Origin: a virus
Lineage: Duplodnaviria > Caudoviricetes
IMG/VR virus record: IMGVR_UViG_3300048672_000495
Location: 1-55,126 of that record
Length of the DNA stretch: 55,126 nt
Reading direction: 5' to 3' (one strand)
In this document: piece by piece, positions 1-30,981 of the stretch
Layout of the letters: the number at the start of each line of letters is the position of its first letter
Numbering within the stretch: position 1 is the first letter of the stretch
Notes under the pieces: generated by a model
Seen by the model: the letters and a program-made list of their open reading frames with translations, nothing else
The model's database searches: none
What the model was told of the DNA's origin: nothing
Position numbers and translations under genes: made by a program

Positions 1-969
1 ATAGTTATCTATATCTATAAAACCCTGCGTCATAAATGTAGATACTAGATTATCACTTAGATTAATATCTAATAATGTATTATTAACTATATCTCTACTA
101 CTAAATGTATATAAAGCTCCTACTGTAGTATTGGAAGAATTATAGTGCATCTCTACTACAGAACTATCATCAATAGTATTTTCTACTGCTATGTTGGTAA
201 CTATATTATTTCCACCATCAACATATTTTGTACTACCTATTGTAGCAAATGCAGTTAAATTAGTATTTATAGAGTATTTAGCTGATATACCATCATAATT
301 TGATTGCATTCCATGGGCAGCATATTGTCTTCCAATACTTAATCCATATCCTCTATAAGTATCATCAACAGATGCAAACAATAAAGATGTTTTATATTTA
401 TTTTTACTATTATATCTACTATCTGTTAAACTATATGCATCTGATAATCTTGCTCTAAAATTATAAGTATATTCATCTTTTTTAATAGTTGTAGAGTTAC
501 TAAAACTATTGGCTAATGCTTTTGTATACCTATCACTATATAAATAACTAGATATACTAGAAGAAGTACTAGTACTGTCAATTACTCTTGGTAAACTATT
601 TTTTGACTCTACTTCTGGACGTTCTAATTTTGATTCTAATTCTTTTATTCTTTGTGTAATATTACTATTATACACTTCTTCTGGATAATCATTTAAGTAT
701 AATTGATACTCAATTTTAGCTCTAGCATAATTACCTAGATTTTCTAGAGTAACTGCGATCAATAATTGGGCTCGTTTAGATACGTTTGACTTTGGCATTA
801 ACAAAATCGCGTTCAATAGCTCGATGGCAGAATCAAAATCCTTCTGAACTAGAAAGATTTTTGCTTCTGCCATCAATTCTTGACTTGTTTTGTTGTTTGT
901 TACTTGTGGTGTAGCTGTACTATTTAAACTTAATAATAATAAAACTATGTAGAGATATTTATATTTCAT
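1..969 (-). CDS. Secreted TPR-domain protein with probable outer-membrane beta-barrel C-terminus (partial, runs off left edge)
   Basis: Not in the ORF track because it is truncated. Hand translation from ATG at 969 (RBS TGGAGA): MKYKYLYIVLLLLSLNSTA signal peptide, TPR-like AIELLNAILLMPKSNVSKRAQLLIAVTLENLGNYARAKIEYQLYLNDYP, then alternating beta-strand-like sequence (e.g. YRGYGLSIGRQ, YDGISAKY). Confidence 0.7.
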   Translation of the reverse strand, partial: MKYKYLYIVLLLLSLNSTATPQVTNNKTSQELMAEAKIFLVQKDFDSAIELLNAILLMPKSNVSKRAQLLIAVTLENLGNYARAKIEYQLYLNDYPEEVYNSNITQRIKELESKLERPEVESKNSLPRVIDSTSTSSSISSYLYSDRYTKALANSFSNSTTIKKDEYTYNFRARLSDAYSLTDSRYNSKNKYKTSLLFASVDDTYRGYGLSIGRQYAAHGMQSNYDGISAKYSINTNLTAFATIGSTKYVDGGNNIVTNIAVENTIDDSSVVEMHYNSSNTTVGALYTFSSRDIVNNTLLDINLSDNLVSTFMTQGFIDIDNY

Positions 970-984
970 TTCTCCACAATAAAT

Positions 985-1073
985 TGGTCGGAGTAGGAGG
1001 ATTCGAACCTCCGGGGCTTTTATACCCTCGGTTCCAAGCCGAGAACGCTACCAGGCTACGTGATTACACTCCG
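985..1073 (-). tRNA. trnP: tRNA-Pro(UGG), atypical (extra connector nt, 14-nt variable arm)
   Basis: CGGAGTG/TACTCCG acceptor stem, A-CCA end, CTCGG-CTTGGAA-CCGAG anticodon arm, GGAGG-TTCGAAT-CCTCC T arm. Confidence 0.85.
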
Positions 1074-1074
1074 A

Positions 1075-1266
1075 TTAATCGTAATAATTACCAACAGGAC
1101 CAGAGGTAAGAATAACCTCATCACCTTTTGCTAACTGAATTTTTGCATTATGTCTATAAGCACGTTCGTCGTGCTTCATCATGAATTTACCACCCTCACA
1201 ATGTTTTCCCCACTGGCATTGGCGGCAAGAACAAGATTTAGGAGTTTGCTTAGTATTAGTATCCAT
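1075..1266 (-). CDS. hypothetical protein (Cys-rich N-terminus)
   Basis: 63-aa ORF, GGAGA RBS, coupled to upstream ORF (TAATG overlap). Confidence 0.6.
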   Translation of the reverse strand: MDTNTKQTPKSCSCRQCQWGKHCEGGKFMMKHDERAYRHNAKIQLAKGDEVILTSGPVGNYYD

Positions 1267-1463
1267 TATATCTCCAAAGGAGTTATCTTTTTTATAATGT
1301 GGGACCTATACATTTTAGGTCCTATTCGTTTTAATTGTATCTCAACTTCTGTAATAAACTTTAATCTAAGTCTATTATCTTTGGTTAAGTCAAAACCCAA
1401 ACTTTTATAATACTCTACAGCATCTTCCATAGTTTGGAAAATCACTTCTTTGTTATAAGGCAT
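1266..1463 (-). CDS. hypothetical protein
   Basis: 65-aa ORF with AAGGGGA RBS. Confidence 0.55.
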   Translation of the reverse strand: MPYNKEVIFQTMEDAVEYYKSLGFDLTKDNRLRLKFITEVEIQLKRIGPKMYRSHIIKKITPLEI

Positions 1464-1812
1464 GATTCCCCTTAAAGTTCACTCCTATAAGTAGGATGGT
1501 TACCTACTTACTGGGCTAAACTCTAACTCTAGCAATTAATAGCGGAGGTGGTTACTCGTTGCAACAAGCCACTACGTCACTTTAAGCGTACAAATTCTAA
1601 CGCACTATTAACTGTGTTAGGTAATAGATAACCCTAACGCCCCTTATTGACTAGTCCATAGAGCAAAATATTATGCATCAAGGATCGGGTTTATTACTGA
1701 TATGGGGCAGTACTACCCATACGTTGTAATCACGTGTTTTGCGAGATTCATCACCCGCTTTCTAGTTGTAATTAGACTACACGCTATCCTAGTATTACGT
1801 GCTTGAATTTTT

Positions 1813-1896
1813 TGGTACCCAAGAAGAGACTCGAACTCTTAATCCTCGCGGCGGTGGCTTCTAAGACCACAGTGTATACCATTCCACCACTTGGGC
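1813..1896 (-). tRNA. trnL: tRNA-Leu(UAG)
   Basis: GCCCAAG/CTTGGGT acceptor, anticodon loop CTTAGAA, long variable arm, TTCGAGT T loop, ACCA end. Confidence 0.93.
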
Positions 1897-1903
1897 ATAT
1901 TCT

Positions 1904-2080
1904 TATTAAACAGCAGCCTATTCATCACTTTATTATTGAATAGCATTCATATGTTAAACAACTAATTGCGTTAAGTTGTGTGCACCATCAGTGATATGTT
2001 GTTTTTGTACCGTCGTACTGGTATGCGCCTGCGCCTGTGAGGACTCGAACCCCAACTACCCCACATACTGCTGATTAATA
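1904..2080 (-). ncRNA. stem-closed small RNA candidate containing a T-arm-like hairpin
   Basis: Ends TATTAA-a-CAGCAG / CTGCTG-a-TTAATA are complementary; internal TGGGG-TTCGAGT-CCTCA on minus strand. Confidence 0.45.
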
Positions 2081-2085
2081 AAAAC

Positions 2086-2135
2086 ATCCTGCTTACTAGC
2101 GTACAGGTCGATCTCTTTCCATCGAAGGTGGCTAT
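2086..2135 (-). ncRNA. GUAA two-hairpin motif, copy 1
   Basis: minus: GCCACCT-TCGAT..ATCGA-CCTG tacgcta GTAAG CAGG-AT. Confidence 0.5.
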
Positions 2136-2202
2136 ATCACAGTTTAGCTACTGACTTGTCATCTTTACCCTAGGAAGTGCTACAAGCATGCACTATTATA
2201 AA

Positions 2203-2303
2203 ACTAGCTGTCTACTACTGTTCCATTAAAGGTAAGACTTAGTATAATTCGTCCCAGTTCCACATCTTTTTAACACAAGTCCTGTGGTTGCTTGTGAGCT
2301 AGT
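2203..2303 (-). ncRNA. stem-closed small RNA candidate
   Basis: ACTAGCT/AGCTAGT terminal inverted repeat directly 3' of the tRNA-Ile-like gene. Confidence 0.4.
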
Positions 2304-2307
2304 ATAT

Positions 2308-2408
2308 TGGTACCAGGTACTGGAATCGAACCAGTGTTCGCCGCCTTATCTAGACGGTGCTTAAGAGTTTATAAGGCTCCCTCATAGGCCAACATTAGCA
2401 AACCTGGC
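2308..2408 (-). tRNA. tRNA-Ile(UAU)-like, 101 nt, with extra anticodon-like arm (GAU)
   Basis: GCCAGGT/ACCTGGT acceptor + ACCA; loop CTTATAA; extra hairpin CCGTC-TAGATAA-GGCGG; ACTGG-TTCGATT-CCAGT T arm. Confidence 0.75.
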
Positions 2409-2417
2409 ATAAATCAA

Positions 2418-2535
2418 ATATTGAATAGTACAGGTCGTGGTAGTTCTAATACACCCAGTTGACGCTGTTTTTTGCCATCCGTCAAAATGACCGCACAGTT
2501 ACTCTTTATATTCGTGCGCCTATACTATTCAATAT
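2418..2535 (-). ncRNA. stem-closed small RNA candidate (13-bp perfect terminal stem)
   Basis: ATATTGAATAGTA (2418-2430) / TACTATTCAATAT (2523-2535); immediately downstream of promoter 2558-2586. Confidence 0.6.
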
Positions 2536-2557
2536 GTAATCTTCCCATCGAATACAT

Positions 2558-2586
2558 ATTATACACCAAAGATTGAATAAAATCAA
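2558..2586 (-). promoter_or_regulatory. sigma70-type strong promoter
   Basis: TTGATT-17-TATAAT on minus strand. Confidence 0.85.
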
Positions 2587-2722
2587 GCCTAAAATTCTTG
2601 GCCTTCTGGCCACCCGCAAATCATTATAGTAATGTATTTAGCGATAGTGTTAATACCCATAGCAATAAAATATATTGCTAGAAATGCCAGAAACCAGTGT
2701 TGATGCCAAAAATCCCACATTG

Positions 2723-3040
2723 TCATGTTAGTAGTGTTCCAAATAGTTGTTTATGAGTAATAATCCATTTACCTACTGCTGCACCAAATAAAGCTCCAAC
2801 TGATCCAACTGTGAAGTCTTTAAATGATGGTGTATGTTTGTCTGGGTGCATTGCATCAAATATTTCTTTTGTAGCAGCTGAACCTACTCCGGTAGAGAAA
2901 CCCATTTCAGCGTCATCTGTTAACACAGTTACTATCAATGCTATTACAAATCCAGCGATTAAATGAAGTATTTTATCAATACCCCACCACTTATCAGTAG
3001 ATTGTAATATCTGTAGTAACATGCTCGATAATTTTGGCAT
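2723..3040 (-). CDS. VanZ/YfiM-like membrane protein
   Basis: DKILHLIAG..KEIFD..SFKDF motifs, hydrophobic segments, GGAGAG RBS. Confidence 0.6.
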   Translation of the reverse strand: MPKLSSMLLQILQSTDKWWGIDKILHLIAGFVIALIVTVLTDDAEMGFSTGVGSAATKEIFDAMHPDKHTPSFKDFTVGSVGALFGAAVGKWIITHKQLFGTLLT

Positions 3041-3057
3041 AGGCTCTCCAATAATAA

Positions 3058-3105
3058 GTCCCGGTTACTCGATCCGGGAACACTACTAAAGGCGGTGTTA
3101 GCTAT
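3058..3105 (-). ncRNA. GUAA two-hairpin motif, copy 2
   Basis: minus: AGCT-AACAC..GTGTT-CCCGG atcga GTAA CCGGG-AC. Confidence 0.5.
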
Positions 3106-3445
3106 AGCCCCAAATCATTCTACTAGCCCGTACGTCAGATTTGGAATTGAGTACGTGACGATGCGTTTACCTTCTAACGCCAACCTACCATGCTAAGTTT
3201 ACTAACAGCACATGGATTTTCCCACATCTAATCTGCACATTATACTGATCTCTTTGAACCAGTATTTGTCGCCCCATTGCAGTCTGAAGCATGTCCTTTA
3301 TATGGCGGACATTTCCATTATTGGTTCCGTCGTTCTGGACCTCGGAGGAACCACTACCCGAGGGAGATGTATCTGGTCGGAGCATTCCAGATTTAGCGTC
3401 TTGCGATCCTCCTAACAGTGTCGGCCTTAGCTTTCAGCCCACCGC
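3106..3445 (-). ncRNA. ~340-nt multi-hairpin, pseudoknotted ncRNA candidate
   Basis: No credible ORF; several hairpins and two loop-downstream pairings (3347-3353 with 3322-3328; 3138-3144 with 3110-3116). Confidence 0.5.
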
Positions 3446-3451
3446 TTTACA

Positions 3452-3847
3452 TTACTTTCTACAAAAGAAAATTGAATCTGTGTAATACTTAGTAAGATCA
3501 GTAGCTGGTCCAACATACATATACATGTTATTGGTATCGTATGTTCCAATAGTCTCAGCCTTTACACCACCAGGCAAAAAGTCTGTATACATTGGATGTT
3601 CTTCAAACTTCCATACCTTATCATTGTAGACAAAGGTAGCTTTGATTCCTTGAAAATCCACAACTGCTGTTGCACGAACTTCTTCAAAAATCATGTCAAT
3701 AGTGAAGTTAACTCCACTAAGTACACAATTATATTTACCATTGTGTGCAGCATAATTATATGCTGGAGGGGCTGTAGGACCACTGTCACCACCACCACCA
3801 CAAGCTGTAAGAACTGCCAGTGCTAGAATACTAAGAATCTTTTTCAT
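3452..3847 (-). CDS. lipoprotein
   Basis: MKKILSILALAVLTAC lipobox followed by GGGGDSG linker. Confidence 0.8.
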   Translation of the reverse strand: MKKILSILALAVLTACGGGGDSGPTAPPAYNYAAHNGKYNCVLSGVNFTIDMIFEEVRATAVVDFQGIKATFVYNDKVWKFEEHPMYTDFLPGGVKAETIGTYDTNNMYMYVGPATDLTKYYTDSIFFCRK

Positions 3848-3875
3848 ATTACCTTTGTTAGTTTATTTTAGTGAA

Positions 3876-3946
3876 ATGGGCCAGCGGTCCGGTCTCCCGC
3901 ATTGAAGTGTATATACACAGCTACTCACGATTGTATTATGACCCAT
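3876..3946 (-). ncRNA. stem-closed small RNA candidate
   Basis: ATGGGCCA / TGACCCAT terminal complementarity. Confidence 0.35.
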
Positions 3947-4060
3947 AGTAGAATACACATCTTGCTTATGTGGCTTTAGGGCACGAAAGCAATCGCGACC
4001 CATAACTTGATTGAAGTATGGAAAACCATACTTCCTACCACAGATTATGTACTCTACTAT
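3945..4060 (-). ncRNA. stem-closed small RNA candidate
   Basis: ATAGTAGAATACA / TGTACTCTACTAT terminal stem (one G-U on minus strand); internal GAAGTATGG-AAAA-CCATACTTC hairpin. Confidence 0.55.
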
Positions 4061-4062
4061 AA

Positions 4063-4116
4063 GTCCCGCTTACTCTTTGCAGGGTCGGAACACTAGCCCT
4101 CTCCGACAGCTTGGGC
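4063..4116 (-). ncRNA. GUAA two-hairpin motif, copy 3
   Basis: minus: GCCCAAGCT-GTCGGA..TCCGAC-CCTGC aaaga GTAA GCGGG-AC. Confidence 0.5.
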
Positions 4117-4180
4117 ACACATCACTTAGTTCGATCCGTAGCTTAGATGTGCAAATGAATCACCTACGGCTTCTGAATTA

Positions 4181-4240
4181 ATCCCGGTTACCAAACTTCC
4201 GGGTTGCTCTAGATTTAAGTATACTTAAATCGGCAAGGCT
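4181..4240 (-). ncRNA. GUAA two-hairpin motif, copy 4
   Basis: minus: GAGCC-TTGC..GATTTAAGTATACTTAAATC..GCAA-CCCGG aagtttg GTAA CCGGG-AT. Confidence 0.5.
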
Positions 4241-4288
4241 CACGTTTCAATGAGAATCCTAGATCACATCCATCTAGTAGGGTTCTTT

Positions 4289-4573
4289 TTAAAGCTGCTT
4301 CTTCTTAATGCGTTCTACGATACCATCAATAAAAGCTTCGTCCTTTATAAAGGAAACTGCTTCAAGTGCGGAAAGTTTTGCCTTACCTGAAACCTCATAC
4401 TTATAGTCACGAAGTTCTTCACTAATAGCCTTTTCAACAGCAATTCTATGGTACTTTATAAACCATTCTGATTTTTTTACTTCTTCTACGATTTGAGCAG
4501 CAATTAATCTTGCCTCTATACGCGGTGGAGACTCAGGAATTTCAAGATACTTGCGAAGAAACTTTTTTAGCAT
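4289..4573 (-). CDS. hypothetical protein
   Basis: 94-aa ORF in gene orientation of region. Confidence 0.6.
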   Translation of the reverse strand: MLKKFLRKYLEIPESPPRIEARLIAAQIVEEVKKSEWFIKYHRIAVEKAISEELRDYKYEVSGKAKLSALEAVSFIKDEAFIDGIVERIKKKQL

Positions 4574-4593
4574 TTTATTATTAGTTAGTTGTT

Positions 4594-4679
4594 TGGTGGT
4601 CCATCAAGGTAACGATCCTCCTGTCCCGATGGGAAACGGGGTTACAGCCCGCGCACTCTCCTTAAGTGTCTAATGAACC
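4594..4679 (-). tRNA. trnY: tRNA-Tyr(GUA)
   Basis: GGTTCAT/ATGGACC acceptor, loop CTGTAAC, long variable arm, ACCA; non-canonical T loop ATCGTTA. Confidence 0.85.
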
Positions 4680-4689
4680 AATATTAAAA

Positions 4690-5414
4690 TATAGTAGCTA
4701 ATCGGCCATGCCCTGCTCCGGTTTACCGGCTACAGCTTCCCTCTTTCAAGTTTCTCCGATCGGTCCCCCAATCCCTAACTTATGCTTTGGGCTCTAAGGG
4801 TTTCTCTTACTACTATAAGTATTTTCTGAAGGGCCCGGACGGTTATTTGGGGCTCGGTCCCATACATATGCACGTTAGTCTTATATACTTTTAAATATAA
4901 GGTGTGTTCTGGAAAGGAGATAGTGGCAATTGTTTACGCGGTTGTCCCGTATATCAGAAAATATATTAAAGTATAACTAATACGACAGCATTGCCGCAAT
5001 GACTACCTTTTCAGTATGCCAGGATATCACAATTTAACATTCCTGCCGAGCTTGCGGGTCGGGGTCTGTGCGTGATTGCATAGGGCACTGTTAGTTATAC
5101 TTTAATATAAAAATGGGTCTACGAGTCCAATTGTATAGCTAATTCACAATTACGTAGTCTAGTCACGCCTCCACTTATCGTCAATCGGTATCGGAGCTTA
5201 TCCCGAATCCCAATCTATTGTAGCTTCATCGAACGCCGCTGACATACCGATCAGCTTCACCCATTAAGATTAAATAGTTCCTGGCCAGGCTAGATAATTT
5301 TCTCACTTGCTTCCGCCTACTAGTGACAAACAGGGGCAGAAGTATACGACTTCCGCGGCCTATGTCTCGTTCCCATTGTCTTGTATCCAATTATCTTACT
5401 ATTTAATCTTAATG
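4690..5414 (-). ncRNA. tandem array of five abutting stem-closed small RNAs (4690-4817, 4820-4963, 4962-5109, 5112-5265, 5262-5414)
   Basis: Each ~130-155-nt unit is bounded by its own inverted repeat (8, 10, 19, 7 and 17 bp); no ORFs; lies between promoter 5488-5516 and tRNA-Tyr. Confidence 0.65.
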
Positions 5415-5467
5415 ATCCAGCTTACTTGATACTGGGCTAATAATTTGTGGCTATTAGCAGTGCGCCA
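5415..5467 (-). ncRNA. GUAA two-hairpin motif, copy 5
   Basis: minus: GGCGCACT-GCTAATA..TATTAGC-CCAG tatcaa GTAAG CTGG-AT. Confidence 0.5.
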
Positions 5468-5487
5468 TTTCTCACTTCAGAATATAT

Positions 5488-5516
5488 ATTATAATCCAAA
5501 ATACTTCGCAATTCAA
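5488..5516 (-). promoter_or_regulatory. sigma70-type promoter driving RNA array
   Basis: TTGAAT-17-TATAAT. Confidence 0.85.
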
Positions 5517-5523
5517 GCTTAAA

Positions 5524-5928
5524 TTAATACATGTGAACAGCAACTATGTGTACCGTTACCGCAATAATCATCAGTATTACGAATGGTTTATGATAAATAT
5601 GCCAATGTACAAACATTATAACATACTTATCATGTAGATGGCCCATAGTATGTATTACTTTATTATAAAGATACCTACCATATACACCACTTATAGCCAC
5701 TATCATTAATGATATGAACGCTATTGTAGCATTCAGACTACCAAAATATAATCTAGTATGAGCAATAACTATAAAAGGAGTTATTGCTCCTATAAACATA
5801 TGAAGATGGAACCATAAACGAATGTTACCACCAATCCAGGGAAAATTCTTTCTAACGTGGTACAATAGTAGTATTAGTATTAGAAATCCCGAAAATATCC
5901 CTGTTTGGTATGAGTAACTATTGTTCAT
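5524..5928 (-). CDS. His-rich 4-TM membrane protein, cytochrome b/ferric-reductase-like (multiheme-cytochrome-cluster inner membrane protein type)
   Basis: WFHLHMFIG..AH, SGVYGRYLY, WHIYHKPF..VHIVAVHMY: paired His in TM helices typical of heme-b ligation. Confidence 0.7.
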   Translation of the reverse strand: MNNSYSYQTGIFSGFLILILLLYHVRKNFPWIGGNIRLWFHLHMFIGAITPFIVIAHTRLYFGSLNATIAFISLMIVAISGVYGRYLYNKVIHTMGHLHDKYVIMFVHWHIYHKPFVILMIIAVTVHIVAVHMY

Positions 5929-6109
5929 CCTTATACTTTTTTATTGCTTCCGCATCCAACGAACAATACACCCTAAATTTATCTTTTCCTGCTTCGTCAT
6001 AAAAAGCTTCAGCCATTTTTTCAAGTGACTCGAACTTTTCAGATGGAAGTGAGTAATATCTACTTAGGAACGCAGATACTAGAAATTCTTTGCTATAACC
6101 TGCTGCCAT
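5918..6109 (-). CDS. hypothetical protein
   Basis: ATG at 6109 with AAGGGA RBS downstream of promoter 6131-6159. Confidence 0.6.
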   Translation of the reverse strand: MAAGYSKEFLVSAFLSRYYSLPSEKFESLEKMAEAFYDEAGKDKFRVYCSLDAEAIKKYKDEQ

Positions 6110-6130
6110 AAAAATCCCTTTCAAGCCTTA

Positions 6131-6159
6131 ATTATACAGGCTTTGATCAGGAAATTCAA
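6131..6159 (-). promoter_or_regulatory. sigma70-type promoter
   Basis: TTGAAT-17-TATAAT. Confidence 0.8.
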
Positions 6160-6167
6160 GATAAAAT

Positions 6168-6497
6168 TTACTTAGAAGCAGCAGATGCTGGTGGTTTAGC
6201 AGTTACAGCAGCCTTCTTCAATGAAGCACACTGTGAACGTTCAAACTTATCCTTCTTATATGATTCTTCTTTTGTTTGCCACTGCATGTTTTCAATGGCA
6301 TCTTTACCACCTGCACATAATGGAATTATGTGGTCTACCACAAATCCTGGACAGGTAGTTTTACTATGTTCTACTTTAGCTGGGCACGGATGAGTCTTTA
6401 CAAACTCTTTACGCACTTTAGCTGATCTAGTAGTAGCATCTACTGAGCTAATTAAACTTATTGCTAGTAGACATGCTACTAATAGACTCTTTTTCAT
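6168..6497 (-). CDS. HNH-family nuclease with N-terminal signal peptide
   Basis: MKKSLLVACLLAISLISSVDA; VVDHIIPLCAGGKDAIENMQWQ..KD motif. Confidence 0.75.
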   Translation of the reverse strand: MKKSLLVACLLAISLISSVDATTRSAKVRKEFVKTHPCPAKVEHSKTTCPGFVVDHIIPLCAGGKDAIENMQWQTKEESYKKDKFERSQCASLKKAAVTAKPPASAASK

Positions 6498-6604
6498 TTA
6501 ATTCCTATCACTTTGTTCGTCCACAGGAGGACGCTTACCGCGACGCGCATTACGTCTTTGTTTTTCTTGTTCTTTACGCTCTTTGCGTTCGTCCGGGTCT
6601 TGTT

Positions 6605-7438
6605 TCATAGCACTAGTGCCTCAATCTCATTAGTTCCGACATTGTCGGTTTTCCAAAACTTACCAGTCAATGGCTCTGTAACTGTAAGTCCAGCCCAACT
6701 GTGCCGATCTACAGCAAATGCCATAGTATCAATATTGGTTTGGCCGATTACTGTAGTTGGCATACGTACTGGTGTATGTCCACTAAAGATGTGTGACAGT
6801 TTATCATTAAAGAAATCTGTTACTGCATGTTTAGACAGAATCGCTTTGTGTAGAATACCATGTTGCTTACTAACTTCTTTTGCAAAAAGTTCCGCAAACA
6901 TTTCCCTACCCCACAAAAGCCCGTGCCCATCTCTACAAACACGACTAGCAATATCTTTAAAGTTAGTAACTAGACTTTCATCAGTAATAACTTCATCTTC
7001 TTTGCCAAGAATTTCAGCATGAATAACGTGAAATTTCTTTCCATTACTCATATTTACTGTAATTAGCCAAGGGAGTTTCTCTACTATTGGTAGAAGAAGG
7101 TCAACAACATCGTGTTTTTCTTCATCGTTCACAAATTCAAACCAGTTTCCACCGTTTCTGAACCACCAGGCACCAGTAGGTCCACCAGTTAGAAAGTCTT
7201 CCATTAGTTGTTCGTGGTTGCTTTTTACACAGTGAAACCAGGGTTCAAGCAGTAGACTCAAACACCTAAAACTGTGTGGGCCTCTATCAACTAGATCACC
7301 CACCGAAAACATACGATCTTTTTCAAAATCAAATCCTACGTGTCCCATAAACCCAACTAGCAGTTCATGTGATCCGTGTAGGTCCCCACACACAAAGTCT
7401 CTACCTTGAGTGTTTACATCAAACGTTTTTATCTTCAT
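6605..7438 (-). CDS. Ser/Thr protein phosphatase (lambda NinI/PphA-like metallophosphoesterase)
   Basis: GDLHG, GDLVDRG, SNHE, IHA, GHTP, IDT motifs. Confidence 0.9.
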   Translation of the reverse strand: MKIKTFDVNTQGRDFVCGDLHGSHELLVGFMGHVGFDFEKDRMFSVGDLVDRGPHSFRCLSLLLEPWFHCVKSNHEQLMEDFLTGGPTGAWWFRNGGNWFEFVNDEEKHDVVDLLLPIVEKLPWLITVNMSNGKKFHVIHAEILGKEDEVITDESLVTNFKDIASRVCRDGHGLLWGREMFAELFAKEVSKQHGILHKAILSKHAVTDFFNDKLSHIFSGHTPVRMPTTVIGQTNIDTMAFAVDRHSWAGLTVTEPLTGKFWKTDNVGTNEIEALVL

Positions 7439-7532
7439 TATTTGTTTTAGTTAGCCAACAGATTAGCATACATCTTAGTACAAGTACTAAGAGTATCAGT
7501 ATTATTACTGTTATATATGCATAATCCATAAT

Positions 7533-7607
7533 TGGTACCACCAGTAGGAGTCGAACCTACGTCATTGGTTTAGGAAACCACAATACTTTCCGTTGTACTA
7601 TGGTGAT
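7533..7607 (-). tRNA. trnR: tRNA-Arg(CCU)
   Basis: cloverleaf, anticodon loop TTCCTAA, ACCA end. Confidence 0.9.
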
Positions 7608-7611
7608 ATAT

Positions 7612-7686
7612 TGGTCCTGCGTGAAAGAATCGAACTCTCATCTGAGGGGTAGAAACCGACTGTACTTTCCATTGTACTAACGCAAG
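7612..7686 (-). tRNA. trnR: tRNA-Arg(UCU)
   Basis: cloverleaf, loop TTTCTAC, ACCA end; two mismatches in anticodon stem. Confidence 0.82.
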
Positions 7687-7693
7687 AATTTAT

Positions 7694-8002
7694 TTAGTAA
7701 GGCATGCCAATTATAGGATAGAAAGCAGCGCGCTGAGTAGGATTCATAAAGAATTCCCATTCCTTATGTCCTTCGTCAAACAGTTCTATCGAATTAATAG
7801 ATACGGCTGACTCATCTTCGTATTCTTCATCTTCACATACTGAATCACCATATTCTTGAGAGAATTGCTCACGTTGGGTTTCTTCCATATAGTCTGCGGC
7901 TAGAATCTCAGCCTCTGTTTCGTTCTCAGCCCAAACCACTACATTCATCTGACCACCACACCAATGTGCGTTCTCGTAGTCAATTAGGTAACGTTGTTTC
8001 AT
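7694..8002 (-). CDS. hypothetical acidic protein
   Basis: 102-aa ORF, ATGA-coupled to upstream small ORF. Confidence 0.65.
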   Translation of the reverse strand: MKQRYLIDYENAHWCGGQMNVVVWAENETEAEILAADYMEETQREQFSQEYGDSVCEDEEYEDESAVSINSIELFDEGHKEWEFFMNPTQRAAFYPIIGMPY

Positions 8003-8133
8003 TTGTATTCGTTTGTTAGTATATCGAGTGGAATAACCTTTAATGCTTCTAGATACATCTCTTTATTAAAAAATACTTCGTTCTCCAAATCCTCTAGAAG
8101 TTGTATAATGTAATTAAATGTTGCTGCGTTCAT
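7999..8133 (-). CDS. small hypothetical protein (MNAATFNY..., 44 aa)
   Basis: hand-translated; ATGA overlaps at both ends. Confidence 0.5.
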   Translation of the reverse strand: MNAATFNYIIQLLEDLENEVFFNKEMYLEALKVIPLDILTNEYK

Positions 8134-8306
8134 ATTTCGTTTTTAAATAGTTTAATTAGCATATCTTTTCTATAATCTACTGGCATAGATGCATAAAGTG
8201 CTGAGCATCTAATAGCCTGTTCTTTGCTAAGCTCACCTTTTATGTTCATGAGCTCAAGAAGTTCTTCAGTAGCTTCAAGTGTATAATTAAATGTTGCGGG
8301 ATTCAT
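8130..8306 (-). CDS. small hypothetical protein (MNPATFNY..., 58 aa)
   Basis: hand-translated; GGAG RBS; N-terminus shared with 7999-8133. Confidence 0.55.
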   Translation of the reverse strand: MNPATFNYTLEATEELLELMNIKGELSKEQAIRCSALYASMPVDYRKDMLIKLFKNEI

Positions 8307-8468
8307 GTGTTACTCCAAATCTGTCCAATAATAAAACTACTTGCTAAAAATACCCAATATTCAAGGCTAAATATAGCGACTGGATGTAGTATTTGAAGTG
8401 TTGAAGTAAGTATTGCTGTTGAAAAGATTATTTTTGGTCCTTTTAGTGTTTCTGGTTTCATTTTATTT

Positions 8469-8543
8469 TGGTAGCTCCTGAAGGAATCGAACCCTCATCG
8501 CCAAGTTCGTAGCCTGGTGCATTCTCCGTTATACGAAGGAGCC
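8469..8543 (-). tRNA. trnR: tRNA-Arg(ACG)
   Basis: GGCTCCT/AGGAGCT acceptor, loop CTACGAA, ACCA end. Confidence 0.92.
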
Positions 8544-8678
8544 ATTGTTTAGTTAAAATGTTTTCCTGCCCAAAAATGTCCAATAATTGGCATATTAAAC
8601 TTCATATTGAACCAAATATCTCTATTTTTATAATCGAACTGGAATTTTTTAAAGTAATTTCTCTTTTGTTTCTTCATT

Positions 8679-8879
8679 TTAAGGTCCGTAAGCATCTAGA
8701 CAATACTTACAAATATCAAGTCCGTCTAAATCTTTATGCATTGACTTTTGCCATAGACCACAACAATTACATTGTTTGAGGTTAATTTCCAAGTCAGAAG
8801 TAAATTCTATCACACATTCACTACAACCTTCAAGTACAGTTTTTCTAGTGTTAAGTAGGGCTGACTCTAACGGTTTCAA
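8679..8879 (-). CDS. small Cys-rich (Zn-finger-like) protein
   Basis: CxxC x3; overlaps stop of upstream gene. Confidence 0.55.
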   Translation of the reverse strand: MKPLESALLNTRKTVLEGCSECVIEFTSDLEINLKQCNCCGLWQKSMHKDLDGLDICKYCLDAYGP

Positions 8880-9574
8880 CCTTTTTCCTCACGTTGCTCT
8901 AATTCTAATACTGCTAACAGATTCCAAATCATTTGAGCAAGATGCTTAGTATAAATACCATTTGGGCCATCATCATATACTTTACCAGATCCTAGCTGAA
9001 GCATATGCCTACCAAATGCATCCATATATCTATCTTTACCATCTGGTACAGTTAACCAACCATGCGCGGTATATTTCTTAGCTCCAGTAGTACCAACCTT
9101 AGCAACTTCTTCTAAAGCATTACTAAAATCACCTAGTACCAACCATGGACGCAACTTACCAGCATCAGCCTTCGATCCTGCTTCATTCAATGATTTGCCA
9201 TTAGGATCAGTCTCAATATATGTAATATTTTTAGGATCGTACGGAGTATGTGTTATAGTTGCACTACTAGCTTTAGGGTTATCAAGATGTATAACTCTTA
9301 CATAATTAGATCCTATAACTCCACCACAACTCATACTTGCAAGTTCTTCTGCAAATAATGGCTCAGCTACTTTTACTGGCTCAGGAAATGGCCATACAGC
9401 AGATTTACTCGCTTCTATTTCCTCATCAGGATAAGGCCAGGCCCAGTTATTTTCTGGTTTGCTAGTTGGGAAGGGCCATGGAAGTGAGGACTCATCCATA
9501 ATCGTAGGACGCACTACTTCTTTCTTACTAAATGCTTTTTTCCACAGTTGTTTTGCTTGAAAATCTTTTTTCAT
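8876..9574 (-). CDS. dATP/dGTP diphosphohydrolase (DUF5664-like) with N-terminal W-P-F-P repeats
   Basis: KADAGKLRPWLV..ALEEVAKVGTTGAKKY..W..RYMDAFGRH..HLAQMIWNLL. Confidence 0.75.
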   Translation of the reverse strand: MKKDFQAKQLWKKAFSKKEVVRPTIMDESSLPWPFPTSKPENNWAWPYPDEEIEASKSAVWPFPEPVKVAEPLFAEELASMSCGGVIGSNYVRVIHLDNPKASSATITHTPYDPKNITYIETDPNGKSLNEAGSKADAGKLRPWLVLGDFSNALEEVAKVGTTGAKKYTAHGWLTVPDGKDRYMDAFGRHMLQLGSGKVYDDGPNGIYTKHLAQMIWNLLAVLELEQREEKG

Positions 9575-23784: not shown

Positions 23785-24047
23785 TGCTTGTGCCCTCGTT
23801 TGTAAGAAACATGCCCCCACACATCGCGCACGGGCACCGTGAATTGCAGTTTGCAATCCAGTGTCGTGATGGTGATGCTGCTTGTGTCGCGTGACAGTTC
23901 AGTAAGGTCGCGCACGCTGCAATACGCACCACGCTTGCCAGCCCAGATTGAAAAATCTTCACCGTTCAGCCATGCTGTACGCATTGCGTCAACGTCGGCA
24001 TAGTGTTTGCCGGGGGCAGGGATTAGAACAAGTGGTGTTGCAAACAT
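23781..24047 (-). CDS. hypothetical protein (first pre-early gene)
   Basis: GAGGA RBS, promoter TTGTAC-16-TAGAAT upstream. Confidence 0.6.
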   Translation of the reverse strand: MFATPLVLIPAPGKHYADVDAMRTAWLNGEDFSIWAGKRGAYCSVRDLTELSRDTSSITITTLDCKLQFTVPVRDVWGHVSYKRGHKQ

Positions 24048-24277
24048 TGCGTTTCCTCGTTTGATGCCTTTATTCTACAGCATGTGCGCGACTGTACAAG
24101 TACTATTACAAACTGTTACATCTCTGGTGGTAATAGACTATGCCTATGAGGGGGGGTTATCTGACTGATTGTTACATATGGCCACGTGCACCCACCAACA
24201 CGGCCTACATCCAATATTTTCTGAAAAACATTACGGTGCCAATTTACGGTGTCAAGGCACCTAACCAAAATCCACAC

Positions 24278-24306
24278 TTGCGCTAATATCCTCACCGTGA
24301 TATAAT
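24278..24306 (+). promoter_or_regulatory. promoter of packaging operon
   Basis: TTGCGC-17-TATAAT. Confidence 0.65.
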
Positions 24307-24334
24307 TACTGCATCACACAACTATGTAACCACG

Positions 24335-25522
24335 ATGTACAAACCAAATGAGAAATTAAATGCTTTATTCGCGAAGGCTAGAAATTATAGAAAAAATACG
24401 CGTTTTGATAGAGCCTTGGAATATTACAATAGAGTACTAGGTTTACAAAAATGTAAAGAAGCATATCAAGAAATAGGATTAATTTACGTAGAGTTACATG
24501 ATTTAGATAAAGCTAAAGAATACTTCAATAAAGCTAATGATTCTAATATACCATATTTAAATGGAAAACATGTATCAAATGATCCTACATGCATACATAA
24601 TTTAGCTAGTATTGAATATATAATGTTCAATGATATAGAAGCTATGCGATTATACAAAATTGCGTATTCATTAGATCACAACAACTATGCTGCACTTTTA
24701 GGGTATGGTCAGAGTGGGATCAGACGATATTGTGAAGGTGATACTTCTATTGATCTTAAACAGATGTGGAAATATTACACATATAGGTTTATGGAGGGAG
24801 ATTTAACAATCTATCGCCCACACGATCTCTGGGATGGAATTACACCACACTTATCAGAAAGTATAGTCGTACTTCGCGATCAGGGTCAAGGTGATGCACT
24901 AATGTTTAGCAGATACTTACCTGAGCTACAAAAATACTTTAAAAAGATATATATGCAGGTAGCTCCTGAATTGGAGTGTTTATACGAAAATATATATGAT
25001 GCCAATAGTGATTGTAAATATGCTATACCAATTGGTAATTTACCCCAGTTATTAGATTATATTCCTGCTGGAGATTGGCTTGCTAATAGAAATATATATG
25101 AAAAGCATGATGGACTAAGAGTAGGTTGTGTATGGGGTGGTAATAATTTACACAAGAACCATAGTGATAGAGCCTGTCCTCCCTCATACTTTGATAATTT
25201 AGAATATGATAAATATAGTTTCGTACCTAGAGTTGGATATACGTTTTTGGAATGGAAAAACTGGGATGATACTATATATTGGTTAAATAAGTTAGACGTA
25301 GTTGTAACTGTTGACACTTCAATGGTACATATGTGTGGCTGTTTAGGTAAACCTTGTATCATGATAATGCCACTCATAAGTGGTGATTTCAGGTGGGGAC
25401 GCTCGGATAAAACTATTTGGTACTCAAGTGTTAATATTGTACATAATAATGATAGTTGGTCAGAAGCATTTAAAGAAGTAAGAAAGAGACTAGATGAATT
25501 TGCCAGTAAACACACCAGTTGA
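24335..25522 (+). CDS. TPR-repeat + GT-B (GT9-like) glycosyltransferase
   Basis: N-terminal TPRs; DQGQGDALMFSRY, GCVWGGN, LDVVVTVDTSMVHMCGCLGKP..DFRWG. Confidence 0.8.
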   Translation: MYKPNEKLNALFAKARNYRKNTRFDRALEYYNRVLGLQKCKEAYQEIGLIYVELHDLDKAKEYFNKANDSNIPYLNGKHVSNDPTCIHNLASIEYIMFNDIEAMRLYKIAYSLDHNNYAALLGYGQSGIRRYCEGDTSIDLKQMWKYYTYRFMEGDLTIYRPHDLWDGITPHLSESIVVLRDQGQGDALMFSRYLPELQKYFKKIYMQVAPELECLYENIYDANSDCKYAIPIGNLPQLLDYIPAGDWLANRNIYEKHDGLRVGCVWGGNNLHKNHSDRACPPSYFDNLEYDKYSFVPRVGYTFLEWKNWDDTIYWLNKLDVVVTVDTSMVHMCGCLGKPCIMIMPLISGDFRWGRSDKTIWYSSVNIVHNNDSWSEAFKEVRKRLDEFASKHTS

Positions 25523-25961
25523 AGTATTAGATATTTCACCAGAAGCACTAGAAGTTGCAAATTGCTACTTACAGACACAAAATTTAGACGCTGTTGCTAG
25601 TGAACTAGATATATCAAAAGAGTTAGTTACTCAAATTTTGTCGAAGAAAGAAGTAAAATCATATATAGATCATGTATTCTTTAATCTAGGATTTAATAAT
25701 AGATTCAAGATGCGTGCTGCGATGGATGCTATTATAAAGAAGAAGTTTCAGGAGCTAGAAGAAAGTGAAATGGGCTCAACTAAGGACATTGCAGAACTAT
25801 TAGCTTTAAGTCATAAAATGACAATGGATGAAATGAGTAGACAGATTGAGCTTGAGAAACTACAACAAGCAAATATAAAGAACCAAGTTAACGTACAGAT
25901 TAACGATGGTGGAACTAAATATAACACATTGATAGAAAAGTTGTTAAGCGGAGACATATGA
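25494..25961 (+). CDS. terS: terminase small subunit (T5-like)
   Basis: ISPEALEVANCYLQ..EVKSYIDHVF..GFNNR..STKDI..QIN; position near TerL. Confidence 0.8.
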   Translation: MNLPVNTPVEVLDISPEALEVANCYLQTQNLDAVASELDISKELVTQILSKKEVKSYIDHVFFNLGFNNRFKMRAAMDAIIKKKFQELEESEMGSTKDIAELLALSHKMTMDEMSRQIELEKLQQANIKNQVNVQINDGGTKYNTLIEKLLSGDI

Positions 25962-27160
25962 TAACTGAAGAAAACTATAAACTATTTCAACGTGGGCTAA
26001 AGTATTGTGAGAAGAACCCAGATAAGGCTATACCACTACTAAAACAGTTCTTAAAGGAGTGTGATTGTAAAGAGGCATGGTTAAACCTAGCAGTAGCATA
26101 TAAGCATAAAGGTAATTTAAAAGTAGCTGGAGAGTGCCTACTAAAAGCTAATGATGAAAAAATACCATACAGTGATGGCACATTTGCTAAAGCGTATCCT
26201 ACTGCATTGAATAACCTAGGACTAATTGCTCATAGCTTGGAAGATGATGCTACGGCTGAGCAGTTTTATAAGGCTTGCCTAGCTATCGAACCGTTAAATT
26301 ATGATTGCTTATGGAATCTTAGCGTAGTAAAGCTAAAGAACTATTGTAGCGATATGGGTGGTAACTTAAGCGAGTGCTGGAGGCTATACAACTATAGGTT
26401 CAAACGTACTGGAGCTGATCCACTAAAAAATGCTAAAGAAGATCTTAAGCTTTGGAATGGGCTTGATAAGGTTAAAAGTATAGTATGCTTAAGCGAACAA
26501 GGTATGGGTGACAGCATAATGTATGGTCGCTACCTTGAAAAACTAAAAGAATACTGTGACGAAGTTTGGATCCAATGTGATCCTAGCCTAAATTACATCT
26601 TCTCGGACTATAATACATGTGTTGATGTTAGGGATAGTGATGCTACTCATGGAATCCCAATCGGATCGCTAGGTAGCATAATGGACTATATACCTAGCTC
26701 ACCATGGCTTGCTGAGAAGCGAGTAGTTGAAGAACACTCAGGATTACGAATTGGATGTGTATGGGCTGGTAATAAGAAACATATTAATGATAAGAATAGA
26801 AGTATCACTCCGTTCTTTTTTAACAAATTAAGGAAACATGGCGAACTATGTACAATTGGTCCTGCAAGTGGTCCTGAACCTGGGTTTACTCATCTTGATG
26901 GTAACAGCTGGAAAGAAACTATTGAGAACCTGGGTAAGCTCGATTTAGTTATAACAGTAGATACATCTATAGCACATATGTGTGGATCATTGGGAATGCC
27001 GTGCTGGGTACTGATGCCACTAGTGGACACTGACTTTAGATGGGGTAATAGTACAATGGGGTTTAAGAATGTATGGTACCCTAGTATTAGTGTATTTAGA
27101 AATCCCGGTAACTGGATCGAAGTATTTAATAACGTTGAAAGAGCATTATGCGAAGTGTAA
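25958..27160 (+). CDS. TPR-repeat + GT-B (GT9-like) glycosyltransferase, paralog
   Basis: EQGMGDSIMYGRY, GCVWAGN, LDLVITVDTSIAHMCGSLGMP..DFRWG. Confidence 0.8.
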   Translation: MITEENYKLFQRGLKYCEKNPDKAIPLLKQFLKECDCKEAWLNLAVAYKHKGNLKVAGECLLKANDEKIPYSDGTFAKAYPTALNNLGLIAHSLEDDATAEQFYKACLAIEPLNYDCLWNLSVVKLKNYCSDMGGNLSECWRLYNYRFKRTGADPLKNAKEDLKLWNGLDKVKSIVCLSEQGMGDSIMYGRYLEKLKEYCDEVWIQCDPSLNYIFSDYNTCVDVRDSDATHGIPIGSLGSIMDYIPSSPWLAEKRVVEEHSGLRIGCVWAGNKKHINDKNRSITPFFFNKLRKHGELCTIGPASGPEPGFTHLDGNSWKETIENLGKLDLVITVDTSIAHMCGSLGMPCWVLMPLVDTDFRWGNSTMGFKNVWYPSISVFRNPGNWIEVFNNVERALCEV

Positions 27161-27855
27161 TTGGTAGGTACGGTGAAGTATGGTACTACGGTAAGGATCG
27201 CTTTATTGGTAGAGGCCTACATGCCTATGGAGAATTTAGTCACCAAGAGTGCATGAATATTTTAGCACTTGCACGGGAGGGTGATGGGGTTTGCCTTGAT
27301 ATAGGTGCTAATATGGGATGTATATCCCAAATGCTTGAGTACCATGGGATGACAGTTGTGGCCTTCGAGCCGCAGCCTGAGCTAATCAAAGTGCTAGAAA
27401 AGAACTTTAAAGGCTCTATTAAGAACTTTGCACTTGGCAGTGAAGAAAAGACTGAGGTAATGCCTAAGTATGACTATAGCTCAAATGGTAGTTTTGGTGA
27501 GGCTAGCTTAGGTACTAAAAGTGCACTAGGTAGTATTACTGTAGATGTTAAGAAACTAGATAATTTCTTCTTTGGTAAAATTGGATTCATGAAGATTGAC
27601 GTTGAAGGATATGAATTAGAAGTACTAAAGGGTGCTAGAGAGACTATTCTTAAATATAAGCCATTAATGTACATTGAAGATGACAGGGCTGAAAAAAGTC
27701 CTGCACTACATGCCTATCTAAGTGAGCTAGGATATATTTGTGAACTAGATGTAACTAAACTATATAATCCGGATAATTTCTTTAATAATTCTAAACGGAT
27801 TTGGGATAGAGATTATGTATCTCTTAATTTAATATGTAGGCCTAAGAAATGTTAA
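27148..27855 (+). CDS. FkbM-family SAM-dependent methyltransferase
   Basis: LDIGANMG, AFEPQ, MKIDVEGYELEVLKGA. Confidence 0.9.
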   Translation: MRSVIGRYGEVWYYGKDRFIGRGLHAYGEFSHQECMNILALAREGDGVCLDIGANMGCISQMLEYHGMTVVAFEPQPELIKVLEKNFKGSIKNFALGSEEKTEVMPKYDYSSNGSFGEASLGTKSALGSITVDVKKLDNFFFGKIGFMKIDVEGYELEVLKGARETILKYKPLMYIEDDRAEKSPALHAYLSELGYICELDVTKLYNPDNFFNNSKRIWDRDYVSLNLICRPKKC

Positions 27856-29132: not shown

Positions 29133-29145
29133 TATATAAATTATT

Positions 29146-29181
29146 AAAGCCCTATATGCTTCGTGCATATAGGGCTTTTTT
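29146..29181 (+). terminator. intrinsic terminator
   Basis: AAAGCCCTATATGC-TTCGT-GCATATAGGGCTTTTT. Confidence 0.85.
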
Positions 29182-29198
29182 ACTGCCTAAAAATTTAC

Positions 29199-29227
29199 TT
29201 GATTTTGTTTTACTTAAGTGCTATAAT
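29199..29227 (+). promoter_or_regulatory. promoter
   Basis: TTGATT-17-TATAAT. Confidence 0.8.
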
Positions 29228-29255
29228 TCGTGCATGGTAATTTTAGGTTAAAGAA

Positions 29256-29693
29256 ATGGCTAAGAATACAGGGAATAATCGTATACCGGTCAAATGGGTA
29301 CGAGATAAAGCTAAAGCAGCTTATGATAAAAAAGATCACTGTTATATTTGCAATTGTGAAAATGACTTAGAACTACACCATACTCACTCAATCACACTCC
29401 TACTGGAGAAGTGGTCTTATGATAAAGGTTATGATATTTCAACCGATGAAGGTATCTTAGCTGTTCGAGACGAGTTTATTGAGACGTTTCATAAGGAGAT
29501 TTATGATGACGTATTCACATTATGTAATAAACATCACGTAAAATTACATGGGGTATACGGCAAGAAACCTGCTATGCATACGGCTACTAAACAACTTACT
29601 TGGATAGAGAAGCAAAAGGAAAAATTCCTTAGTCCTACTGATGAAATAACAAAACCTAAGATTTTAGGATCTTTCTTTAGTGAATTTACGTAA
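29256..29693 (+). CDS. HNH endonuclease (T5 nicking-endonuclease-like)
   Basis: CYIC..LELHH..TLCNKHHVKLH; between TerL and portal as in T5. Confidence 0.85.
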   Translation: MAKNTGNNRIPVKWVRDKAKAAYDKKDHCYICNCENDLELHHTHSITLLLEKWSYDKGYDISTDEGILAVRDEFIETFHKEIYDDVFTLCNKHHVKLHGVYGKKPAMHTATKQLTWIEKQKEKFLSPTDEITKPKILGSFFSEFT

Positions 29694-29701
29694 GGAATAA
29701 T

Positions 29702-30883: not shown

Positions 30884-30903
30884 TTAGCTAACAAAAATTA
30901 CAA

Positions 30904-30932
30904 TTGACTTACCCTTGCCTACATAGTATAAT
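30904..30932 (+). promoter_or_regulatory. promoter of capsid gene
   Basis: TTGACT-17-TATAAT. Confidence 0.8.
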
Positions 30933-30981
30933 GATAACTGTGTATAATTGCGAGCATAATTTTTATAAAGGAAAAATGTAG

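Follow-up and report, generated by a model that had tools for sequence, protein, structure and literature searches.

What is the short two-hairpin sequence that recurs along the left end of a tailed-phage record (IMG/VR record IMGVR_UViG_3300048672_000495), and what could it do there? The window that we analysed is the entire viral record, 55,126 bases, with an estimated completeness of about one half; at its left end, read in the minus-strand sense, tRNA genes, small open reading frames (ORFs) and long non-coding stretches are clustered together. The original prediction placed here five dispersed minus-strand copies of an RNA motif with a GUAA loop, and a weaker copy at ∼1495–1535, and saw in them a processing signal, a ribozyme or a protein-binding decoy. 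The five copies are borne out by counting: the core GTAASCNGGAY has five matches in the whole record, all on the minus strand, at 2086, 3058, 4063, 4181 and 5415, versus 0.20 expected (standard deviation 0.43), and none of 100 shuffles reached five; this 11-nt pattern was composed post hoc, with the copies already known. As the window is the whole record, there are no further core copies in it.

Architecture of the motif and conservation of its pairing

In 5/5 window copies a variable hairpin, P1, ends 0–1 nt before a second hairpin, P2, with a 5-bp stem and a loop made of A, 4–6 variable bases and GUAA; a conserved A-Y follows, and the whole lies in non-coding sequence on the sense strand. 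This is our working definition of the motif. In the window copies P1 has 4–8 closing pairs, is 18–33 nt in total and has no spacer to P2; the P2 loop is 9–11 nt, with a centre varying in sequence as well as in length; the stem is followed by A-C or A-U, and the size of the motif is ∼45–60 nt. The minimum free energy (MFE) fold of every copy (n = 5) consists of two abutting hairpins, as had been predicted, and the structure finds support beyond this genome (see below).

We name the copies c1 to c5 from the left end of the record. The first, c1 (2086–2125, minus strand, as are all others), has a P1 with a 5-bp stem and an 8-nt loop at 2125–2108, and P2 with its A-U at 2107–2086: CCUGU, loop ACGCUAGUAA, GCAGG, then AU. 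The P1 of c2 (3058–3099) spans 3099–3079, and its P2 (3078–3058) reads CCCGG, AUCGAGUAA, CCGGG, then AC, ending 17 nt upstream of the ATG of an ORF at 3040–2723. In c3 (4063–4107) a P1 with a 7-bp stem (4107–4084) precedes CCUGC, AAAGAGUAA, GCGGG and AC at 4083–4063. Copy c4 (4181–4236) is located after an ORF at 4573–4289; the 3′ ends of c4 and c3 are 118 nt apart, with that of c4 on the upstream side. Here P1 (4236–4204) is formed by UUGC/GCAA closing an inner 13-bp hairpin, and P2 (4203–4181) by CCCGG, AAGUUUGGUAA and CCGGG, then AU. Finally, c5 (5415–5458) combines a P1 with an 8-bp stem at 5458–5436 with a P2 of CCAGU, AUCAAGUAA and GCUGG, then AU, at 5435–5415.

The five P2 stems represent four different sequences, and 25/25 of their pairs are standard. 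Three of the pairs are non-Watson-Crick, and all three are U·G when read as minus-strand RNA, which indicates an RNA (or a single strand) of minus sense; in the wider set of motifs described below, too, all non-Watson-Crick pairs are U·G on the gene-sense strand. Folding energies of the copies have z-scores from −0.9 to −2.6 only, so that energy alone is weak evidence and the case is based on comparison. Positions +1 to +7 after the A-Y are poor in G (G in 4 to 13 of 61), as expected of a stretch predicted to be single-stranded.

One could think of a signal acting on the DNA level (an origin, say, or a hairpin promoter or the operator of a protein); it would suit the promoter-like position just upstream of genes and a -10-like box at the equivalent place in cyanophages. 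We consider this explanation extremely improbable, however, as the U·G pairs would be C·A mismatches on the other strand, the stems covary instead of staying conserved, the phages with the motif belong to groups sharing no polymerase, and the loop is not -10-like in most copies. A -10 promoter box within the P2 loop was tried as a candidate as well; it fits only some copies of one lineage and was rejected.

The training set of a covariance model of P2 and its flanks, R1, comprised three of the window copies together with 14 from other phages; c1 and c4 were left out. Both left-out copies were recovered (E 0.025 for c1 and 5.7e-4 for c4; the next best window match had E 0.25); E-values for c2, c3 and c5 were 1.3e-10, 5.4e-8 and 3.6e-8. 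The weaker copy at ∼1495–1535 dropped out, with no R1 match at E ≤10. Of the 5′ consensus ‘..GC..CU’ that had been proposed, the window copies retain only a CU or CC dinucleotide before P1, and it is not conserved in other phages.

Outside this record, pattern scans of viral contigs, for which all counts refer to the matches listed and most P2 positions were preset by the search patterns, located the motif in phages of dozens of unrelated lineages, with T4-like myoviruses and contigs of other kinds among them; one T4-like lineage contributed most instances in two of the three scans. The CCCGG/CCGGG version was present at no fewer than 119 loci (a lower bound), and the first loop base, unspecified in the pattern, was A in 79 of the 119 matches listed. 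Of 62 unique instances, 58% had a hairpin of at least 5 bp whose end coincided with the beginning of P2, versus ∼18–45% at other offsets.

Conservation of pairing was observed in both helices. With the third stem base of P2 fixed as A and its partner left free, the partner was T in 96/120 matches listed (58/78 unique), the others being A (9), C (8) and G (7); with the base fixed as T, the partner was A in 102/120 matches listed (67/82 unique), the others being G (5), C (4) and T (9). The matches with a mismatched partner were located mostly in long ORFs, as chance matches would be. For P1 we used 23 distinct sequences from uncultured T4-like phages, in which RNAalifold placed P1 directly against P2: two-sided changes were seen at 5/5 pairs with 100% of cells paired, the covariation score was 0.464 versus 0.136 shuffled (0/500 shuffles as high), and the signal collapsed once partners were slid by one to three columns. 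This test is unbiased because P1 was absent from every search pattern. Second copies that had not been selected by any pattern numbered 16, versus 6 in a reversed control, and included a variant with the first pair flipped from C-G to G-C. The claim that pairing is kept while stem sequences change, made initially for a single genome, is thus upheld by the standard pairs of the window copies, by the partner scans and by the P1 covariation.

The same pattern gave at least 120 matches in bacterial genomes, almost all in long ORFs; non-coding matches with an abutting P1 made up 2/116 there versus 14/58 in viral contigs (among matches listed), and the bacterial matches look like chance coding matches. 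Three motif regions (loci L034, L018 and L286) compared with cultured phages by blastn gave no match. Copy number was 1–2 in each of 30 records searched whole, ten of them ≥90% complete; the five copies of the present record are therefore unusual. Together, these comparisons show that the motif is a structured, strand-specific, two-helix RNA module under selection, restricted to phages.

Position of the motif and a tentative reading as transcript punctuation

We grouped 212 non-coding instances (among the matches listed) into 66 clusters. The 5′ end of a tRNA on the same strand was found within 20 nt after the motif in 7/66 clusters (the eight distances listed are 3–12 nt), and at three loci (L034, L096 and L115) this tRNA is the first of an array as far as the sequence reaches. 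In 14/66 clusters a Shine-Dalgarno-like box and a start codon followed within 50 nt; a terminator-like hairpin followed in another class, 9/66 clusters. The genes after the motif differ: ten tested genes included two for terminase small subunits, one for an SbcC-like protein, one for an exonuclease, two from families of unknown function and four with no match. Tandem motif pairs occur at loci L034, L115 and L410 and, in the window, as c4 + c3. What the positions show is that the motif stands where leader or spacer RNA ends on its 3′ side, and that a tRNA, a ribosome-binding site or a leader hairpin comes next.

The terminator-like hairpins come mostly from one lineage. In the uncultured T4-like phages the gene order is gp44, gp62, regA, a non-coding RNA (ncRNA) ending in the motif, a hairpin with a U-tract and then hsp20, so that the motif lies directly before the hsp20 leader hairpin. 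Two cultured cyanophages have a -10-like box and then a similarly placed hairpin upstream of hsp20; judged from this layout, the box would mark a place where a 5′ end is made. A model search of the spacer after regA in four cultured cyanophages (regA-hsp20 in two of them) found no motif. At locus L286, 2040–2260 searched at E ≤10 gave a sub-threshold match to ROSE_3 downstream of the motif (22 bits, E 0.012; the gathering score is 43) and a CRISPR-DR22 match, E 6, upstream of it. In view of the cyanophage arrangement and the ROSE_3 match, the T4-like hairpin after the motif probably belongs to a ROSE-like hsp20 leader, as its 5′ hairpin, rather than being a terminator, and we give the class ‘terminator after motif’ little weight.

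In the window, three sigma-70-like promoter matches on the minus strand, each 10/12 by consensus match only, are found at 6159–6131, 5516–5488 (TTGAAT, 17 nt, TATAAT) and 2586–2558; the number of promoter-like sites in the region, 25, is not above that in shuffles, 26.2. Copies c5, c4, c3 and c2 fall between the second and the third of these sites, each before a different unit. The -10 box of the match at 5516–5488 ends 52 nt before the P2 of c5, which would place c5 near the 5′ end of a primary transcript.

Given this geometry, a position where a 5′ end is needed or made, and recurrence between two promoter-like sites, we tentatively favour, at well below even confidence, the reading of the motif as a punctuation signal in transcripts, read by a protein and serving processing or stability. 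P1, a variable hairpin or domain, would stack directly on the fixed 5-bp P2; a sequence-specific protein, of the host or of the phage, would recognise the P2 loop; the fixed length of the P2 stem would place the conserved A-Y at the base of the helix, and the transcript would be cut, or shielded from exonucleases, at the A-Y. In this way the upstream leader or ncRNA would be set apart from the unit that follows, be it a tRNA array or an mRNA whose leader is short. The protein partner, the cleavage and the protection are all functional steps that we infer; a loop and an A-Y that are one 5-bp helix apart are better suited to recognition of the loop by a protein acting on the base of the helix than to a self-contained catalytic fold. 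Of the original idea of punctuation or processing, it is the positions that fit, at the 3′ edge of non-coding stretches and, for c5, c4, c3 and c2, between two promoter-like sites.

Several observations weigh against the punctuation reading. More than half of the clusters (36/66) fall in none of the three context classes. Complete phage genomes carry 1–2 copies, not one per gene, and the motif is thus no general intercistronic signal of the kind that RNase III sites are in T7. The A/U-rich tail is unlike the RNase E consensus. Hosts of the phages bearing the motif span ∼32 to 70% G+C, and the partner would have to occur universally or else be supplied by widely differing phages; neither kind was found, and no search for a shared protein was made. 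In addition, the true variability of P2 is under-sampled, since nearly all its positions were preset by the search patterns, the non-ascertained second copies (16 versus 6) are few, and in two of three scans the dominance of the one T4-like lineage has to be reckoned with.

The spacing to start codons raises the question of a translational operator, in which a repressor on P2 would block the adjacent ribosome-binding site. P2 does end 8–35 nt before start codons in many instances, a spacing to the start codon resembling that of the operators of T4 gene 43 and E. coli thrS; yet the motif also stands before tRNAs, where nothing is translated, and the genes downstream of it are functionally unrelated, and we hold such an operator to be most unlikely.

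It is unlikely as well, but conceivable, that the motif is the recognition element of an undescribed RNA-level system common to very different tailed phages: either a hairpin-guided ‘ruler’ nuclease that removes the leaders of tRNA arrays and mRNAs, or an RNA that, free of protein, attaches to host machinery of universal occurrence, RNA polymerase or a tRNA-binding enzyme, and so permits expression of long untranslated tRNA/ncRNA clusters. Hairpin-guided cutting of RNA is known from Cas6 on CRISPR repeats and from T7 RNase III sites. The motif shares with these a short G+C-rich hairpin of fixed length, a conserved feature where the hairpin ends on its 3′ side, repetition along the transcript and the separation of units; unlike them, it has no array, no spacers of fixed length and no long duplex, and no nuclease is linked to it. 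The loops of CRISPR repeat hairpins are also much smaller than that of the motif.

The ncRNAs in and around phage tRNA clusters, like these clusters themselves, are poorly understood. A compact, strongly covarying element common to T4-like myoviruses and other phage contigs, over a wide range of G+C and precisely at the border between leader RNA and the gene or tRNA after it, indicates that phages share a step in the handling of transcripts which is absent from the catalogue of RNA families. If the reader of the motif is a host factor, it would offer a new handle on how phages exploit the host RNA machinery; if it is a phage protein, a new RNA–protein pair would be at hand. Covariance models of the motif could be used to annotate viral metagenomes.

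Known RNA families and competing explanations

The original prediction could assign the motif to no known family, and this agrees with our searches. Rfam 15 gave 10 matches in the window at 900–9000 with E ≤5, none of them on a motif copy, and on another 22 motif-bearing loci it gave tRNAs only. From sequence comparison, we regard the motif as a phage-specific structured RNA with strong covariation and no Rfam entry. Literature searches brought up no description of the motif; it may be among the 10,006 candidate phage RNAs, all of them unnamed, that were catalogued in 2023 (PMC10690425). The preQ1-I riboswitch, similar in its 5-bp stem, loop size and A/U-rich tail ahead of a ribosome-binding site, was rejected: there was no Rfam PreQ1 match at E ≤5, pairing of the loop with downstream sequence scored 3.41 versus 3.43 shuffled, and the base preceding the 3′ strand is not a fixed C but covaries with its partner. 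Nor were the copies called as intrinsic terminators: a scan called none of the five, P2 has only 5 bp with a 9–11-nt loop, and the tail begins with A-Y.

A ribozyme had been among the options of the original prediction; here it would be a small self-cleaving one that trims leaders. Theta ribozymes are located at tRNA 3′ trailers and fold as a nested double pseudoknot. A ribozyme role in phage tRNA processing has been published for HDV-like ribozymes of gut phages (PMC10879173). The motif is likewise a small phage RNA element beside viral tRNAs with a proposed role in transcript processing; it is sporadic across unrelated phages, present in few copies per genome, and has about a dozen conserved nucleotides next to variable peripheral stems. 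Still, it consists of two simple hairpins located 5′ of tRNAs and has no match to the HDV family, nor, in the window at 900–9000 and even at E ≤5, to any Rfam family of self-cleaving ribozymes (hammerhead, twister, pistol, hatchet, HDV-like). We saw no sign of a pseudoknot between the P2 loop and its flanks, with no excess of pairing over shuffles (upstream 3.31 versus 3.36, downstream 3.41 versus 3.43), single cases of loop-flank complementarity such as the 7 bases at locus L057 notwithstanding. There was likewise no closing helix P0 or third helix, as the 5′ and 3′ flanks do not pair (3.98 versus 3.77). As the loop and the A-Y are at opposite ends of a 5-bp helix and 0–1 nt are unpaired at the junction, no catalytic pocket is evident, and a ribozyme is now very unlikely.

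Control of elongation is a more serious competitor, though still improbable. A nascent hairpin pair would modify RNA polymerase, either unaided (the case of HK022 put) or together with Nus factors and a small protein (the case of lambda nut/boxB), so that the enzyme reads through terminators and escapes Rho on long untranslated tRNA/ncRNA stretches. The motif has, as expected of such an element, 1–2 copies per complete genome; a strong sigma-70-like promoter match was found 51–368 nt upstream in 9/59 instances versus 4/59 for a downstream control region; upstream coding was on the opposite strand in 16/32 decidable cases, as for starts of divergent operons; and several copies stand before untranslated tRNA arrays. 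A terminator-like hairpin with a T-tract followed within 30 nt in 37/93 instances versus 4/93 in a control region; most of these 37 cases, however, belong to the one T4-like lineage and are probably the hsp20 leader hairpin discussed above. Moreover, four copies between two promoter-like sites, and tandem pairs, would be needless if polymerase has to be loaded once.

The put RNA consists of two adjoining stem-loops of about 70 nt; it needs no phage protein and acts in cis on terminators via the zinc-binding domain of the RNA polymerase beta′ subunit, and its stems are long, with bulges and a triple helix, according to its published description (PMC9378689). With its two adjoining stem-loops of ∼50–70 nt in a leader, either close behind a promoter (c5) or some few hundred nucleotides from one, the motif matches this description, whereas it differs in having a plain 5-bp stem in P2, four copies between two promoter-like sites and no similarity of sequence or profile. 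In HK022 24000–32000, a stretch which we take to contain putL and putR, neither of them annotated, the best R1 match with filters off had E 0.42. Lambda boxB is also a hairpin with a 5-bp stem. The motif resembles nut in its short hairpin with such a stem, a purine-rich, GNRA-like loop end, and few copies per genome in operon leaders; in contrast to the nut pentaloop, its loop has 9–11 nt with a variable centre, a second hairpin is stacked on it, and it is found in T4-like and other non-lambdoid phages. There was no boxA enrichment either (12-nt consensus with ≤3 mismatches: 71 matches in the window versus 78.8 expected) and no shared box after the A-Y.

The tRNAs in the neighbourhood bring in another unlikely, but not negligible, explanation: a protein-binding handle or decoy on trans-acting small RNAs, which would serve as a sponge for a host RNA-binding protein or, as a partial mimic of the tRNA D-arm and anticodon arm, would distract a tRNA-directed nuclease or enzyme. 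Titration would be in line with the presence of five copies and of tandem pairs, and tRNA genes were present in the examined neighbourhood of 65/212 non-coding instances versus 6/55 coding-like chance matches. A hairpin, 0–1 nt and a 5-bp stem with a loop-end GUAA on the 3′ strand reproduce the geometry of D-arm plus anticodon arm; GUAA also forms the end of the anticodon loop in three tRNA-Thr genes nearby, and it is contained in the anticodon loop of a cryptic tRNA-Tyr-like cloverleaf of the window (see below). On the other hand, the loop has 9–11 nt, not 7, and U is not enriched two positions before the G (T in 15/71), at the place equivalent to U33; no acceptor or T-arm partner helix was found, the flanks are unpaired, and the copies are called neither by ARAGORN nor by the Rfam tRNA model. 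A trans-acting RNA would not require strict closeness to the next gene either. Mimicry of the anticodon arm of tRNA-Thr or tRNA-Tyr, considered as a candidate of its own, is weakened as there is no U33 equivalent.

A classic mimic of the anticodon arm, the E. coli thrS leader, gave no match to a covariance model, R2. Similarity to the thrS operator is in the 5-bp stem-loop close upstream of a ribosome-binding site and in a loop end identical to positions 35–38 of tRNA-Thr; the differences are the expanded loop of the motif, its lack of a U33 equivalent, and its presence before tRNAs. We also searched the tRNA cluster of T4, which includes rnaC and rnaD (species 1 and 2), and the best R1 match had E 1. 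These are small ncRNAs in a phage tRNA cluster, and the hairpin loop of rnaD ends in GUAA; stem register and flanks, however, differ from those of the motif. The T4 record annotates rnaC and rnaD as small, stable RNAs only, and we know of no function assigned to them.

The left-end cluster and other RNAs near the motif

Among the proteins encoded by the record are a large terminase subunit, a portal protein, a protease fused with the major head protein, and a major tail protein. A terminase search for relatives of the window returned two short contigs and one distant contig; a protein-based search with a 277-aa phosphoesterase returned no relatives, and a blastn comparison of 1400–5600 with cultured phages had a tRNA-Leu gene as its sole match. 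No RNA run was listed among the sequencing runs containing the sequence, and contigs of four DNA runs cover the copies only patchily. One 326-nt contig of a relative (<90% alike) from run X4 joins 4009 to 4180; the missing 170 nt (4010–4179) comprise c3 and a spacer hairpin, and the gap begins directly after the A-U of c4. This single low-depth contig hints at a modular gain or loss of motif units.

ARAGORN called six tRNAs in the window, all on the minus strand, while Rfam 15 at gathering score yielded 4 tRNAs only. The tRNA-Pro(UGG) at 985–1071 (−), 87 nt by ARAGORN, is barely at the threshold of the Rfam tRNA model (29 bits, model positions 7–64 only), which suggests an insertion or an unusual arm. 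A tRNA-like gene missed by both programs is located at 4594–4679 (−): its 86 nt have as MFE fold a complete class-II cloverleaf. The acceptor helix has 8 bp and the anticodon arm 5 bp, with CUGUAAC as its 7-nt loop (anticodon GUA, Tyr); there are also a D-arm, a variable arm and a T-arm, the last weak with its 4 bp, and the 3′ end is ACCA. The folding z-score is only −0.95. A second uncalled tRNA-like gene, at 2310–2412 (−), combines a canonical T-arm with an acceptor helix and a variable arm that is long, and it has CCA at its 3′ end (z −2.2), but its anticodon region is odd. Directly after c1, at ∼2020–2065, there is a T-arm-like hairpin with ACCA.

Three minus-strand stretches, 5414–4700, 4060–3850 and 3450–3105, are devoid of ORFs, look structured and have no Rfam match; an example within them is a 13-bp helix at 4055–3945 closing ∼130 nt. 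They may be more degenerate tRNAs, or larger RNAs. Farther along, an ORF at 8876–9574 (−) carries the N-terminal domain of dATP/dGTP diphosphohydrolase (PF18909, E 3.7e-21), a family presumably linked to phages that replace adenine by 2-aminoadenine.

The T4-like relatives have RNA elements of their own beside the motif. At L286 2177–2234, and at the same place in Synechococcus phages S-SSM7 and DSL-LC03, the hsp20 leader consists of a hairpin, AACUCGCUU and the ribosome-binding site; its likeness to ROSE_3 suggests that translation of this small heat-shock gene could be heat-responsive. The RNA of the regA-hsp20 spacer (L284, L286, L287, L300, L282 and others) contains a further conserved hairpin with the loop ACCUUA and a GCGUC box, none of which is in Rfam; neither is an extra element containing CGGGAUGGGAAC, which some members of this spacer RNA possess.

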